DNA of 63,626 bases, counting the filler, from Sluysia triapertura (Eukaryota), in the NCBI GenBank assembly GCA_046118255.1. It is 4 parts of 4 records of this genome, joined end to end, with 100 filler letters (N's around TTAATTAATTAA, not from the genome) between each part and the next. Parts side by side here need not be neighbours in the genome. Positions count along the whole stretch, not along the records: positions 1 to 17,912 come from JBJNIA010183834.1; positions 18,013 to 31,834 come from JBJNIA010017636.1; positions 31,935 to 51,837 come from JBJNIA010044350.1; 1 more part is not named here. One strand, given 5' to 3'. Position numbers and translations under genes: made by a program. How positions within the stretch are numbered: the stretch's first letter is position 1; the number at the start of each line of letters is the position of its first letter. Of this stretch, positions 8,162 through 51,646 are shown one piece after another. Below the pieces are notes generated by a model. That model was not told the DNA's origin. It saw only the letters and a list, made by a program, of their open reading frames with translations, and did no database searches.

Positions 8162-8319
8162 ACCACTACCAGTGGTGATTACATTAATTTACATTTACAG
8201 TCAATGTCACCACTGATAGTGGTTTGCACATCAATCACCTAACTTTTTATCATTATTACTGGTTGTCCAACCAGAGTTATTCTCATCACTATTTTTATAT
8301 TACTCTGGTTGGACAGCCA
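8162..8319 (+). other. Twin-hairpin cassette copy A (IR-B 8162-8223, IR-A 8260-8319)
   Basis: accactaccagtggtgat...gtcaccactgatagtggt and tggttgtccaaccagagt...actctggttggacagcca. Confidence 0.85.
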
Positions 8320-8575
8320 ATCAAGTTGATTTTGTTGTGAAATTTTTAGTTATTTTGTAATACGACCAATCAAAATTACTATTGTTGTGACTAAGTATTT
8401 TAGATCATAGTGTATAGTAATAATGAACACAATACATGATACCATCTGTTTTGTATTTTATTAGCGTAAATTAGAAGACTTAATCACCATAACCAAAAAT
8501 TTAAAAATTATTTTAGTTTTATCAATTCTGTCGTTGTAATTATATCAATAATGTTATATTAATGTTATATTTTAC

Positions 8576-9164
8576 ATGAATTCATTGATCTGTTTTAGTA
8601 AAATTTCTAAATGCGAATGTTTTGATGAAAGATATCAATGCACCATTTTTAGAGATGAATTTGAGGCCAATATACCTGTAATGAATACAAATCACAATTC
8701 TCCATCTGTTAAAAATAATCAATTAAAGTTAGATACTGATGACATGGAGGTAGAAGAAAATGGTCCTGTCCAAGTAATAAAACATAAGAAAATCACTAAA
8801 TTAATTTCACGAACTACTACGATAAATGGAATACCTCAAGTACACCTTGCATGATAGTCATAGTCATGAAATAATGCCTTGTTTTACAAAACACAGTGGT
8901 CAAACTGCAACTACGAAATCTGATTCCACTGAAAAGTATGACAAAGAAACAATAAAAGATAATGATAATAAAGATGATGATTACGAAGTTAACAATAATG
9001 AACATGATGCTATTAATGAAGAGTTCGTCGATGTATTCATATTTAAAGAAAATGTTATCAAACAAGCAAGAAAACATACAAGTCATTCAAGAAGAACTTA
9101 TTCAAATCAATCCAACAAGAATGCTCTTTGTCAATTTGGTAATGATAACGTGTTGAGAATGTAA
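8576..9164 (+). pseudogene. Orphan coding region downstream of cassette A, split over two frames (8576-8854, 8826-9164)
   Basis: Two overlapping ORFs with protein-like, acidic composition; probable frameshift; no recognised motif. Confidence 0.45.
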
Positions 9165-10793
9165 TCTACTGCTACTACGCACATACAGTCTTCGAATTGG
9201 GATTTAACAAAAATATTGAAACAAATTATGATCACCACTAATCAAAAGTAGCTGAACTACATAGAAGTCTTGGAGCACTTACGACTAATTCGACTAACAC
9301 ATTTTTAATATTATGAATTTTTATTTTTTTAGATGGTGAAAATGGGAAACGAAACGTCATACGCAGGAGCCAATATTTTAAACTTAAAATCATGACAAAT
9401 AAATTTTCATGTTTCTTTTATTGTTTTTATTAAACATAAGTTAATAGTACACTCTGTGATTTCGAAAATTTAAAAGAAAATTTTTAATAAAGTCGAATAA
9501 TATAATTTATAAATTTAATAAAAAATTATTATCTCATATAATTTTTGAAAACAATACTTCAGATCAAGTCATTATTATTAGAAAATCACATCCAAAGTTT
9601 TACATCACAAAAATCATTTATCCGTCGCACTTTAAACAGTAACTTAAACTTTTAATGAAATTAATTCAGAAAACTTTTTCGAGTTTTTTAACTTTAAAAC
9701 TATAAATTTTAATAAGTTTTATTTTATTATATTACTGATATAATTTTATCAACATATTATTTTATTAAAATTGTTAACCAATTTGTAACTTTTTTCAGTG
9801 ATCAAATATTTGTCTACGATCAAACAATAATTTATTAATGCAAATTTACAGGAATTGCACTTCTTATTCCAAATATCTATCTATGTTATTAGTTTAAGTT
9901 TTTCTACATATTTAATAAAATTTTACTTAAAATTCTGAATAAAACTTTTATTTAATATTTAGAAAGGTTAATTATAACTATTTATTTTAAATAAATAATT
10001 TTTCTAATTAACCTTGAAAAGGGATTAATCGCTATAACATTTATCTTTTATTTCATAAGTTAAGCTACATTATTTGATGATGTATTATTATTATTGATTA
10101 ATTTAAAATATAAACTTTCTTTTGATTATATTTTATCGAGTATAATTAGTTGAAGAAAAAGAATTTTAATAAAATTCTTGAATTTTCATTGGTTCAATCT
10201 AAGAACCTGACTAAACTTGATTATAAATTTAAATAAAACATATTACAGTTCATTGGTTCAATTTAAGAACCATAGTAAACTTATTTTTAAACCTTAATAA
10301 ACTTATTCTTAAATTCACATTATCATAATTTATTTTAAAGAGTTCAATTTAAGAACCATAGTAAATTATAGGTTCAATTCAGGAACCTTTGCAAATATTA
10401 AAAATAATTTTTGTTTTTCTATGCTTCTTATAATTTTAAGTAGTTAGTATGATCAAAAATTTTTCCCTGGGTTAATTTCTTCTCTTTTTCAAAAAGGTAT
10501 GTTAAATAGTGTAGTTACTGATAGCATAACTTTCTATTAACTCTTTTGGTACAACCGGTACACATTTGTATCATGTACAACCCGCGATATTTGAATACAA
10601 TCCCGAAAGGGTTAAATATTGTTACCATTTCATTCAATGAAGAACTTATCTTAGTTCAAAAATGTTTGTGTGTAACAATTTTCTTCTGTGATCAAACTTA
10701 AAACTATCGGTATGCGCACGCACGAGCACAGCTTAGATTAAACATTAAACATTAATTAATCAATGTGTAGAAAAATATAAAACTTGAACTGAC

Positions 10794-10937
10794 TTATAAC
10801 ATCAGTTTCATCCATAATTTCTGCTTGTATTATTTCTTCAATAACATCTTCTAATGTCACCAATCCAATTATTTCACGATAAGGGTCTCCTTCGCAATCA
10901 GTCACCATAGTTTCGACAAATGCCATATGTGCTTTTC
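10794..10937 (-). CDS. CNNM: Single internal exon of a CNNM/ACDP metal transporter (CBS2 region)
   Basis: tttcag|(G)[47 protein letters not shown]|gtcagt matches the CNNM signature GKSHLA.V......[25 protein letters not shown]. Absent from the ORF track. Confidence 0.9.
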
Positions 10938-48519: not shown

Positions 48520-49594
48520 AGCCATTGCTAGTGGAGAGACCACATCGTCTGAACGGCATCCCACATTGTCTGCATTATGCTTACAGACCTATACTAATAA
48601 CTTTCTCTTTAGATACTCCAAGAAATACGCGAGACATTTGGAAATTTATCAAACAGATAGATTAATTAAGCAATGGAGAAATAACAAAAATACAAACAAT
48701 TTTACCCAACTATAATACAACTAAGAAACAGATAAGTAATACAAAAGAAGCACTCATATACTACAACTACAAATCGGAAAAGCAATTTGACCAATTCAAC
48801 TACAAAAGTCACTACAATGCATTCTTATAACTTTCTTATAATTCTATTAATTTTTACAGTACTATATATACTTTAGACTGTAATTTGCTTGTTTCAAATT
48901 CATAAGAAAATACGGACCCTACAAATATTAAAAATCTTATACCATTAATTATAAGTACAATTAATTTTAAACAATGATTACAATGATTACTGTCACGAAT
49001 ATTCATTTAAGACAGAACACTTCGAATTTTATAATAGCGATAATAAAGTCATTGAAAGAATTTCAGAAATAGCTATTGATAAACAAGGAATTAATTGCAA
49101 AATTATTGGAATATCGATTTACGATTCAAATTCATTTAAGAAAAGCTGTGTTGGAAAAAAGATTAATATAGAAAACCGACCATATAATTACATCTGTGGA
49201 AATTCAAATTGTGTATTTTATTAAGTAAGCTTATTCGTGATAGGTTTTTCGGCATAAATCATTTGCCTCAAAATCATTTAATTTTTTTAAAACCCAAGAA
49301 TTACTCCTAGGTCAAATTGAGATATAAGACAAGGAACATTTATTATCTATAATTTTAATTTCAATAATCAGCGCATATAGTTTTTGCTCGTTGTTTCTTT
49401 GATTAACCTCGTCACTATTTGTACTTCACGAATCAGATCGCCAATTTTGTACACTAAAGCAATAAAATTTATGAAATTTAATGAATAAATACTCACATAA
49501 TGTATTTTTATAATTAAATTGATATTAATCATTGCTTCAAGTTTTTGTTCTTCCGACAATTTAGGTTTTAAAACTTCATGTAGTATTAATCTAA

Positions 49595-51074
49595 CTAAGC
49601 ATTGAGCACTTTGTGAAATATAAATTTGTTTTTTCCTGAGCATAAACTAATCACTGTAGAGGTCGGTTTGTTTGAGTTTATTGATAGATTTACTTGAATT
49701 AAAGTCGTGAAAAGCTTCGAGGGCTTGATTTTGTGTAAAAAATGACGATGTTGATGTAATTCAATCTCGTGAACATTATATTTATCTATAGGACAAGCAA
49801 GGTACAAAAGCTTACGAAACTCAAAATTAAGTTGAACTAAATTATTGACTTTTAAAATGTTTTCAAGTTCGATTATGTATGGGCTAATTATGTCTTCATT
49901 ATGTAAGATCTTATTGCTATACAAAAACTCGACCTCTATTTTAATTTTATCATCTTCGAGTTTTAATACTTCGAAGTAATGTTTGATTTTATTAGCAATG
50001 TCAGTAAAGATTTGGTTGTTACGCAAATTGGAGTTATCTTTAGGTTTCCTACTGTTCGGATCGAACTCTCTGTTACTTCTAATGCTTCTATATTTAACGA
50101 AATCTTGGATATATTTACTGAGAAGATTAAAATTTTTCATCATTTTATAAAGAAAACAAAATCCTAGTTTTTTAACAACATTATTTATTAAAACTTCAAA
50201 TTCATTTACACTAAAAAGATAATTGGCTGGAGTTGAGTTTAACTGTACTTCGTTCGCCATAGAACCGGATATGTTGTATATTGATCTAGGAATAAAATAA
50301 ATAAAAGTATAATATATAGTATAATTAGGCAAAGTAATAAGAAAATTTAGAGATGAATTATGGTTTAACCGGTGCTTACCTTCTTCGTGGTAGATCATCT
50401 GCTCGTGATTTTTGACATCGATTGGCCGCTGCTTTATAGGTTTCAGAGTCATTACATCGTAGCTTCTTTGCTTTTCGCCATTTACACTAATTACATTCAT
50501 CTTTGCACTAGATATAACGATCACCTTGTACTCGAAATTATTTGCATTGCTAACTTTAGGTTTCGCACTAATTGTATTGATCAGATTACATTTCAGACTC
50601 GTCACATCATAACTTCTTTGCTTTTCACTATTTACACTAATTACATTCATCTTTGCACTAGATATAACGATCACCTTGTACTCGAAATTATTTGCATTGC
50701 TAACTTNNNNNNNNNNNNNNNNNNNNNNNNNNNNNNNNNNNNNNNNNNNNNNNNNNNNNNNNNNNNNNNNNNNNNNNNNNNNNNNNNNNNNNNNNNNNNN
50801 NNNNNNTAGGTTTCGCACTAATTGTATCATCATCGATTCCCTTCACTGCATAACTTTTACTCTTTGCAAAATCATCATTATATACCGTGTAACAATCAGT
50901 ACAACACAATACAATTGGATTGTAAAATTGACTTGTGGTGCTTGGATATATGCTTACTATCTTGCTTGTGGTTTTAAACTGAGTTTTAATTAAACCACCA
51001 TCAAATTCTTTTGTGAAACATTCTGTAGCTCTCTCTCGTTCTTCGTGATACACTTTACGTTCTCGGGTAATCAT
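49595..51074 (-). CDS. Orphan repeat-containing ORF downstream of cassette E (spans an N gap)
   Basis: ATG at 51074, open to the gap; after the gap open for ~370 codons; contains 50-aa tandem repeats. Confidence 0.6.
50442..50827. repeat. 150-bp coding tandem repeat, collapsed into the gap at 50707-50806
   Basis: ttacattcatctttgcactagatataacgatcaccttgtactcgaaattatttgcattgctaactt occurs at 50491 and 50641; taggtttcgcactaattgtat recurs after the gap. Confidence 0.9.
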
Positions 51075-51583
51075 TTTTATTAGAGCTTATTATGATTAAA
51101 ATGGCTGGTTTTATTTTATTTCAATGCTGATTAAATGATTTTTGTTTTTCCAAATGGCTGCCAATTTATCGATCGTGCTGCGCAAAATTATGGCCGTTTA
51201 TTAGTAGTGATAATAATTTTTTTAGTATTGAGAAAACAAACGACTATTGAATTGTCTTTGATTAAGAGGCAAAATGGTTGAAAAATTGCTATAATTTTTT
51301 ATTTTTGTCTTTAATTCTACGTCTGGTTTTTTATTTTCGGTAATGTTGACGAAAAAATAATAATTACTAATTTTTCTCTTGTTACTCTTTTTTATGAATA
51401 ATTACTGTGTGTTTTTAATCAGTCGATACAGCTGTTAGATTGTTCTATAATATTGTAGTCTGTTGTGTTTTTTAACACCTGGCTGACAAATTATCTTTCT
51501 TCTTTTTTATTGGTTGTCTTAATATGCTTGCCTGATTATTGATTTCTAGCTAACTATTGATTTGACAACTGGCGTTAATTCTG

Positions 51584-51646
51584 ACTCCACCCAATCATGT
51601 TTGCTTAATGGTAATTACAATAATGTTGGATTTGATTGGGTGGAGT
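51584..51646 (-). other. Cassette copy E (IR-A only; IR-B degenerate)
   Basis: actccacccaatca...tgattgggtggagt (14-bp perfect), followed by tgattggc and an AAT-rich tract as in the other copies. Confidence 0.75.

Follow-up and report, generated by a model that had tools for sequence, protein, structure and literature searches.

Old, constrained palindromes with CCAAT boxes precede five dissimilar orphan genes in Sluysia triapertura: a candidate duplicated promoter module

Results

In a 63,626-nucleotide stretch of Sluysia triapertura DNA (assembly GCA_046118255.1; hereafter the window, four parts of four records joined end to end), five loci carry a common non-coding module, each ahead of a different orphan gene. 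In its fullest form the module, read towards the gene, consists of a G-poor tract, a purine-rich block, an AAT-rich tract, and two short hairpins, B and then A. Its layout, the covariation of hairpin arms, a near-fixed hairpin span, CCAAT boxes, and a G-poor tract at a fixed position can all be read directly from the DNA. We interpret it as a duplicated bidirectional CCAAT-type promoter module in a fast-turnover gene cluster of a spiralian animal, a functional reading to which we give slightly less than even odds (about 0.45). With the same reserve, we picture an old unit of ∼1.1 kb, locally multiplied, that heads a birth-and-death cluster of lineage-specific genes. The copies are numbered C1 to C5 along the window.

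A hairpin scan of the whole window returned eight strong GC-containing hairpins, every one within the five loci named in an earlier note on this DNA, together with one weaker hairpin at 27955-28043 and overlapping AAT-microsatellite matches at 51950-52057. The weaker one is an isolated inverted repeat, with 13-bp arms and a 63-nt spacer, that bears no relation to the module. Three of three block-shuffled windows contained no comparable hairpin, and for each strand the eight strong hairpins out-fold every one of 200 shuffles (z −3.6 to −7.2). When arm profiles were trained without the copy under test, C1, C2, C3, and C4 were each the top non-training match. C5 was missed by the arm profile built from the other four and weakly found by a covariance model built from them, as the top non-training match (21.8 bits, rough E 0.013; next match 18.0); it is the weakest member of the set. 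Within the window, the covariance model of hairpin A found no sixth hairpin, and the arms have no further copy. The five loci thus stand, as scan and shuffles show, but their description as twin-hairpin loci is only partly right. Hairpin A is present in all five, and hairpin B is intact in C1, C2, and C4 only, being decayed in C3 (z −0.97/−0.45) and absent from C5. Similarly, the shared block ascribed to all five copies is seen in four, the fifth (C5) running into a gap.

Hairpin A covaries. Two-sided changes occur at 11 of its 18 pairs, which none of 500 shuffles reached, and of 120 ways to assign 5′ arms to 3′ arms, the native one outscores all others. For hairpin B covariation was not shown: its arms match those of other copies about as well as their own, and one arm is identical in C2 and C4. 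Watson-Crick pairing is found at 123 of the 129 arm pairs; the six mismatches comprise two wobble pairs on the strand of the open reading frame (ORF), three on the other strand, and one that is neither. The spacing between arm cores is nearly fixed, at 35, 35, 35, 35, and 32 nt in hairpin A and 38, 39, 39, and 35 nt in hairpin B, and all eight strong hairpins have a total length of 53-63 nt; the spacer between B and A is variable (36, 52, and 46 nt). Neither loops nor flanks exceed shuffled sequence in pairing, whichever strand is folded (combined p 0.94/0.91 and 0.76/0.77). Between copies, most loops have reached saturation: at least 25 of 500 shuffles match the score in 11 of the 13 loop pairs, and fewer do so in the other two. 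Saturated loops beside near-perfect arms imply that the copies are old at neutral sites and that the arms have been kept complementary. Adding the covariation, the near-fixed span, the shuffle-like loops, and the lack of an RNA-strand preference, we conclude that hairpin A is an old, constrained DNA palindrome, neither strand of which is favored as RNA, and not the end of a young transposon. Rfam has no family match at the five loci (E ≤ 1), the hairpin B pattern has none in bacterial or archaeal genomes, and C1 has none in phages.

The core of the hairpin A arm is a CCAAT box. The 2.5% of the window that surrounds the hairpins holds 11 of the 17 window matches to CCAATCA, a count in which six of the 11 are arm positions and for which the intervals were drawn after the data had been seen. 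All five copies have at least one intact sense CCAATCA box, as an NF-Y-type promoter would. In C1 and C4, in which the core is altered in both arms, an intact box lies directly downstream of hairpin A. In C2, C3, and C5, the middle A's of the paired boxes are 44 bp apart. Double CCAAT boxes in human cells include a 43-bp spacing class (PMC4889920, where box orientation is not given). These boxes may drive the orphan gene as a putative NF-Y-type promoter.

The module is larger than the earlier note had it, since the CCAAT boxes, the G-poor tract, and a sixth copy of that tract had been missed. In C1 and C3 the tract is ∼600 bp long and contains ∼3% G, and its left edges lie at matching distances from hairpin A (Table 1) despite being barely alignable in sequence. 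The C:G counts per 200 nt are 48:4, 40:4, and 38:15 in C1 and 50:4, 50:6, and 34:11 in C3. In the tract G and T are depleted and A and C enriched, a complementary image of C-to-T and A-to-G changes on the opposite strand; an excess of G+T has been tied to the non-template strand and to R-loops (PMC10030826). The skew is local: at fourfold sites the ORFs have C53:G48 and host exons C35:G39 (p 0.54). A single-strand skew of the whole unit was rejected, an apparent third-position bias having vanished at fourfold sites. A coding reading of the tract was also discarded, no ORF exceeding 79 codons in C1, C3, or the sixth tract under translation tables 1, 4, 5, and 9. Homology from tract to tract is weak and depends on the method (C1 with the sixth tract, 0/200 versus 13/40; C1 with C3, 13-16/200 and 2/40; C3 with the sixth tract, 1-3/200 and 0/40). 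A left-end motif starting with TGT, picked out by eye in three of four tracts, was not significant in any of six pairs.

Further observations touch on the tract. A 230-bp repeat with 76% identity occurs at 873-1089 and 44812-45042, the second copy lying where the G-poor tract of C4 would be expected. Nearby, 45158-45209 resembles 8956-9007 inside the C1 ORF (81% over 52 nt, low complexity). The + strand at 15101-15600 is also C-rich, to a lesser degree; this tract closes with a TTA microsatellite and has no hairpins.

Table 1. Parts of the five module copies, their orphan genes, and the sixth tract, by position in the window
Feature	Position	Strand	Remarks
C1 G-poor, C/A-rich tract	7253..7850	+	G 3.5%, C 20.6% on ORF strand; left edge 1037 nt from hairpin A centre
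C1 shared purine-rich block, variant form	7977..7991	+	
C1 AAT-rich tract	8026..8150	+	
C1 hairpin B	8162..8223	+	17-bp arms, 28-nt loop
C1 hairpin A	8260..8319	+	18-bp arms, 24-nt loop; CCAAT core altered in both arms
C1 two intact CCAAT boxes just downstream of hairpin A	8315..8373	+	at 8317 and 8366
C1 orphan gene	8576..9164	+	ORFs of 92 and 112 aa that overlap in different frames; no family in Pfam or NCBIfam passes the cut-off
C2 orphan gene	29906..30852	-	frame open for 300 codons, its first ATG at 30577; another phase has a short ATG frame starting at 30852
C2 hairpin A	31298..31356	-	14-bp perfect arms, 31-nt loop, CCAAT in both arms
C2 hairpin B	31409..31467	-	18-bp arms, 23-nt loop
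C2 AAT-rich tract and shared block	31500..31630	-	motif at 31624, second motif at 31784
C2 start of G-poor tract	31935..32002	-	remainder lost in gap 31835-31934
C3 orphan ORF	35157..35996	-	279 aa, open
C3 hairpin A	36257..36309	-	13-bp perfect arms, 27-nt loop, CCAAT in both arms
C3 hairpin B, decayed	36325..36385	-	one arm still discernible; shuffles fold as well
C3 AAT-rich tract and shared block	36439..36580	-	motif at 36574
C3 G-poor tract	36720..37318	-	G 2.8%, C 22.7% on ORF strand; left edge 1035 nt from hairpin A centre
C4 orphan gene	42854..43941	-	several stops after 147-codon first ORF; no significant codon-position signal
C4 hairpin A	44092..44154	-	16-bp arms, 31-nt loop; CCAAT core altered in both arms
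C4 intact CCAAT box overlapping downstream end of hairpin A	44094	-	
C4 hairpin B	44201..44261	-	19-bp arms, 23-nt loop
C4 short AT-rich tract and shared block	44262..44350	-	motif at 44345; no G-poor tract upstream
C5 orphan gene	49368..51074	-	ORF pieces either side of gap 50707-50806; strongest coding signal of the five
C5 hairpin A	51584..51646	-	14-bp perfect arms, 35-nt loop, CCAAT in both arms; no hairpin B
C5 C-rich/AAT-rich upstream stretch	51647..51837	-	third CCAAT box at 51669; ends in gap
Sixth G-poor tract, hairpin-less	18380..18859	-	shared-block motif at 18873; cut by repeat (18120-18364) and gap

By eye, the shared purine-rich block at 31595-31660 and 36565-36605 (- strand) resembles a non-coding micro-exon: it is preceded by a pyrimidine run and AG in both C2 and C3 and followed, in C2, by a canonical donor-like site. 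A further match to the block motif lies at 62450 (- strand), with no hairpin or skewed tract noted nearby.

The genes face away from the hairpins, as previously proposed. In all five loci an ATG-initiated ORF of at least 90 codons begins on the same strand 151-721 nt from hairpin A; such an ORF is found at 9.9% of random sites (20,000 draws), which gives ∼1e-5 for five over a distance range set post hoc. The start at 30802 suggested for the C2 ORF had to be abandoned, the long frame (29909-30808) having its first in-frame ATG at 30577. Codon-position asymmetry (p < 0.02) is present in 6 of the 11 cassette ORF pieces (C1a, C1b, C2, C3, C5a, and C5b) and absent from the three C4 pieces, the distal C3 piece, and the last C5 piece. 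Beside the gap in the C5 ORF, a 150-bp tandem duplication at 50441-50706 (94% over 116 nt) is either a real repeat or an assembly effect. An intron-bearing reading of the orphan genes was set aside: only one of three candidates chosen by eye in C5 preserved the frame, and the candidate tested in C2 made it shorter.

Large protein-set searches covered the C3 and C5 ORFs. The C3 ORF has no relative among 343 candidates or 1.84 billion representatives, and no Atlas or phage match. In C5, residues 100-369 have none among 584 candidates, and the whole 369-aa frame has no Atlas or PDB match. The C2 ORF has no PDB match, and family scans (Pfam, PHROGs, and NCBIfam) and exact look-up gave no relative for the C1, C2, or C4 ORFs. 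Single-sequence folds were too poor to use (pLDDT 32 and 36), so the fold search carries no meaning.

None of the 10 pairs of ORF proteins beats all 40 of its shuffles, in agreement with the claim that the ORFs lack mutual similarity, and a constant cis-acting module before dissimilar ORFs is supported. That the genes are variable cargo is less clear in view of weak colinear hints linking C2 to C3 and to C4. The tails of C2 and C3 align at equal distance from the hairpins, which none of 25 shuffles reaches and which lies above 50 unrelated controls, in sequence that is ATT-rich. C2 and C4 score z 3.6 against shuffles, yet fall below 2 of 40 unrelated controls. On these hints the genes may be paralogues of extreme divergence. 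The ATT-rich ends (29480-29680 in C2 and 34370-34600 in C3, both -) lie ∼1.75-1.8 kb from hairpin A and translate as a hydrophobic run. C2 and C4 each show (30163-30060 and 42832-42735, both -) a donor-like site, an AT-rich stretch of 55-58 nt, and a short similar segment, 1.16-1.29 kb from hairpin A; this segment is the best C2-C4 protein alignment, which is not significant.

The units were also examined as mobile elements or replicons. The earlier note had proposed a mobile unit with constant ends, and only one side proved to be shared. In none of 10 pairs did a shared right end score above the best of 20 shuffles, and searches for a terminal inverted repeat, a junction repeat, and a Helitron 3′ end were negative. 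Between the left end and the downstream 4 kb, no direct or inverted repeat of at least 12 nt, and thus no junction repeat of that length, is present in C1 or C3, and C2 has a microsatellite match only. HINE/HLE2 elements need one subterminal inverted repeat at each end (PMC4067079 and PMC11417382); the left end has no inverted match in the downstream 4 kb in any of the three units tested. Terminal inverted repeats flanking the gene, as in Pack-MULEs, were not found. The Helitron motif CTRR occurs within 30 nt after hairpin A on the ORF strand in two of five copies (C2 and C4), at different offsets, and no RepHel or transposase lies next to the hairpins. Nanovirus segments need a stem-loop nonanucleotide (PMC10434203). 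A search with that motif and three variants gave a similar word in two of nine hairpins, with one mismatch each and in different places, and the suggestion of a nanovirus-like common region fails on this point. Nor did the proposed search for a Rep/HUH, integrase, polB, or capsid member yield one: in Pfam, PHROGs, and NCBIfam scans of the window, no cassette ORF belongs to a Rep, transposase, helicase, integrase, polymerase, or capsid family. A mobile unit is further weakened because a recent burst of transposition would not produce saturated loops together with near-perfect arms. The module is not a member of any family tested.

Genomic setting

The window has ∼25% GC and five gaps, and C2-C5 all lie on one strand inside 21 kb of it. 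It contains ordinary animal genes, namely a PQBP1-like gene, a CNNM exon, and an exon of the IP3/ryanodine-receptor type. The best named relatives of the PQBP1-like ORF are from molluscs and annelids (identity ≤52%), and in a tree with 25 named matches its placement is unresolved among spiralians, outside the supported ecdysozoan group. The gene has two candidate introns of 36 and 38 nt; orthonectid introns are short, mostly above 30 nt (PMC6543705). A check for a host gene interrupted by a cassette found no flanking exons for the CNNM-like gene. At 19924-21225 (+) there is an intronless 433-aa ORF with a host-like codon signal, no Pfam family, and no hairpin module ahead of it.

Transposon debris is abundant across the window. 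A family resembling tRNA-derived short interspersed nuclear elements has five copies (23048-23202, 40136-40291, 53433-53534, 60832-60912, and 61019-61158), three of which score as tRNA in Rfam. Remains of long terminal repeat (LTR) retrotransposons at 46490-48520 (+) and 56631-57089 (-) include gag-like pieces with a zinc knuckle, preceded by a motif like a primer-binding site, and one ORF with a match to the Pfam family of Monjiviricetes fusion glycoproteins (E 3e-9). Other dispersed families occupy 1956-2410, 16837-17308, and 28398-28496; 18120-18243 and 28242-28364; and 11643-12094 and 53813-54246. One of them resembles a long interspersed nuclear element with an ATT tail.

Discussion

Of the three candidates offered in the earlier note, an amplified promoter module of a fast-diverging gene family fits best. 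Under such a model, the inverted CCAAT boxes would act as an NF-Y-type promoter firing towards the ORF, and the module would fire backwards as well, giving a ∼1-kb non-coding transcript or R-loop. The displaced non-template strand could then be deaminated into a G/T-rich strand, on the principle reported in PMC10030826. The arms might be kept matched by template switching between them, coupled with selection on palindrome and span; in yeast genes and promoters, template switching homogenizes the arms of inverted repeats (PMC8604942 and PMC13100816). Copies would have spread by local duplication, their genes diverging beyond recognition or being exchanged, and several would now be decaying.

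A number of points weigh against this promoter reading. Promoters seldom outlast the similarity of their own proteins, and here no ORF pair is significantly alike (0/10). C1 and C4 have lost the CCAAT core in both arms together while retaining pairing, so hairpin A conserves pairing and not the box, which a plain promoter would not need. The full G-poor tract is visible in two of five copies only, C5 running into a gap and C4 lacking it. Where present, its skew (C:G 48:4 and 50:4) far exceeds the window median (0.11) and is missing on the gene side; such an extreme, one-sided skew is not predicted by ordinary transcription. The six arm mismatches in 129 pairs and the broken ORFs of C1, C2, and C4 would equally fit units that have been decaying, dead, since insertion. 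Finally, the evidence on NF-Y is from human cells and that on template switching from yeast.

These weak points leave room for a replicon. The units could be gene-sized members of an undescribed replicon or mobile family, either integrated segments or chromosomal units that are excised or amplified, which we consider unlikely though far from idle. The hairpins would be an origin read as single-stranded DNA or cruciform and the G-poor tract a displaced region resembling a displacement loop (D-loop); each unit would carry a different gene, and copies would have diverged while active and decayed after insertion. Strictly Watson-Crick, strand-neutral covariation agrees with this, as do the fixed hairpin span, the left edges of C1 and C3 at equal distance though barely alignable, the deamination-like tract composition, the lack of relatives for the ORFs searched, and the similarly small scale of both arm mismatches and breaks in the ORFs; a dicyemid has gene-sized circles that carry short motifs in common (PMC6543705). 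Yet the units share no right end in any of 10 pairs, in C1 and C3 the left end has no repeat of at least 12 nt in common with the 4 kb downstream (C2 offering a microsatellite only), no replication, integration, or capsid protein (Rep, helicase, integrase, polymerase, or capsid family) is found among the ORFs, the ORFs have no strand skew, and the nonanucleotide-like word is confined to two of nine hairpins, imperfect in both. A bolder and somewhat less probable version makes each unit a replicon in which twin palindromes and the 1-kb displaced-strand tract form a nuclear origin of D-loop type. With it, the animal or a resident element would amplify or excise one orphan gene per unit, in a spiralian and with no known Rep, as multipartite gene delivery or stage-specific amplification.

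The remaining explanations account for less. It is doubtful that the hairpins are clustered small-RNA precursors, microRNA-like, or structural elements of a non-coding RNA running with or against the gene. Their length of 53-63 nt is that of pre-microRNAs, there are two in fixed order, one hairpin B arm is the same in C2 and C4, and the G/T-rich strand could be a primary transcript. However, loops and flanks that pair like shuffles on both strands leave no upper or lower stem, wobble pairs split two to three between strands, the would-be mature sequence of hairpin A differs in every copy, and Rfam has nothing at the loci (E ≤ 1). Slighter still is the prospect that a known class of transposon (Helentron/HINE, Helitron, Pack-MULE, or solo LTR) left these as its ends or as solo remnants, lying by chance ahead of genes that are the host's or were captured. 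Transposon debris is plentiful in the window, and several features are like parts of HINE/DINE-1 elements (PMC4067079): inverted repeats 13-19 bp long, arms that are partly palindromic, an AAT microsatellite, and A/T runs. A possible left-end motif starting with TGT might be added (three of four tracts, by eye, not significant). Against this, the arms of each repeat are 23-35 nt apart instead of at opposite ends and have no other copy in the window, no consistent CTRR follows the hairpin, no RepHel or transposase adjoins, loops are saturated with arms intact, and orientation to the genes is the same in five of five. We give hardly any credence to chance palindromes, or amplification or assembly chimeras, in an AT-rich draft. 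The sequence does have five gaps, and two cassettes run into them; even so, three shuffles gave no comparable hairpin, profiles recovered C1-C4 each as top match when it was withheld, changes between loci are compensatory, and chimeras would not give sequence common to separate loci.

No description of such a module was found in the literature searched, which covers subscription journals thinly and is weak evidence of novelty. If this is a promoter module, it would be a rare case of non-coding architecture (pairing, span, and a 1-kb strand-biased tract) outliving all recognizable protein similarity, and one covariance model would offer a way to the full complement of orphan genes across the genome. 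As an origin, it would represent a novel type of gene-sized replicon, found in an animal. The promoter and origin readings predict opposite outcomes.

Comparison with known systems

Nanovirus segments likewise have one ORF per ∼1-2-kb unit behind a shared inverted repeat (PMC10434203). The module differs in having no conserved nonanucleotide, loops of 23-35 nt, an animal host, and a skew that is not unit-wide; no Rep or circle junction was found. With Helentrons, HINE, and DINE-1 (HLE2) and Helitrons (HLE1) it shares short inverted repeats, partly palindromic arms, a microsatellite, and possible gene carriage (PMC4067079 and PMC11417382). Its repeat arms are adjacent rather than at two ends, and no CTRR end, RepHel, or second end was found. 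Animal pre-microRNAs are ∼60 nt long, and clustered ones resemble the paired hairpins in this respect (53-63 nt in eight of eight), but the module has no extended stem, strand preference, conserved mature arm in A, or Rfam match.

In the mitochondrial D-loop a strand-biased non-coding tract lies beside stem-loops, and the module is like that control region in the same arrangement. Dicyemid minicircles are gene-sized units with common short motifs in a simplified spiralian (PMC6543705). Unlike both, the units described here are chromosomal in the assembly, and their ORFs use the standard code and match no mitochondrial family.

Shared non-coding modules with AT-rich triplet tracts and strand-biased composition stand before fast-diverging genes in Plasmodium (var ups regions and intron) and Trypanosoma (the 70-bp repeats of VSG genes). 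The general design is the same as here, although var and VSG genes remain recognizable paralogues, whereas our ORFs have no detectable protein similarity; we know of no fixed-span hairpins in those modules.

Multi-CCAAT (NF-Y) and bidirectional promoters differ from the module in that its boxes sit in co-varying 13-18-bp palindrome arms, from both of which they can be lost together, and in that it adds a second palindrome and an extreme G-poor tract; NF-Y binding is here putative. What the two have in common is several CCAAT boxes in both orientations 150-600 nt upstream of the ATG, with the 44-bp spacing of the module near the 43-bp double-box class (PMC4889920).

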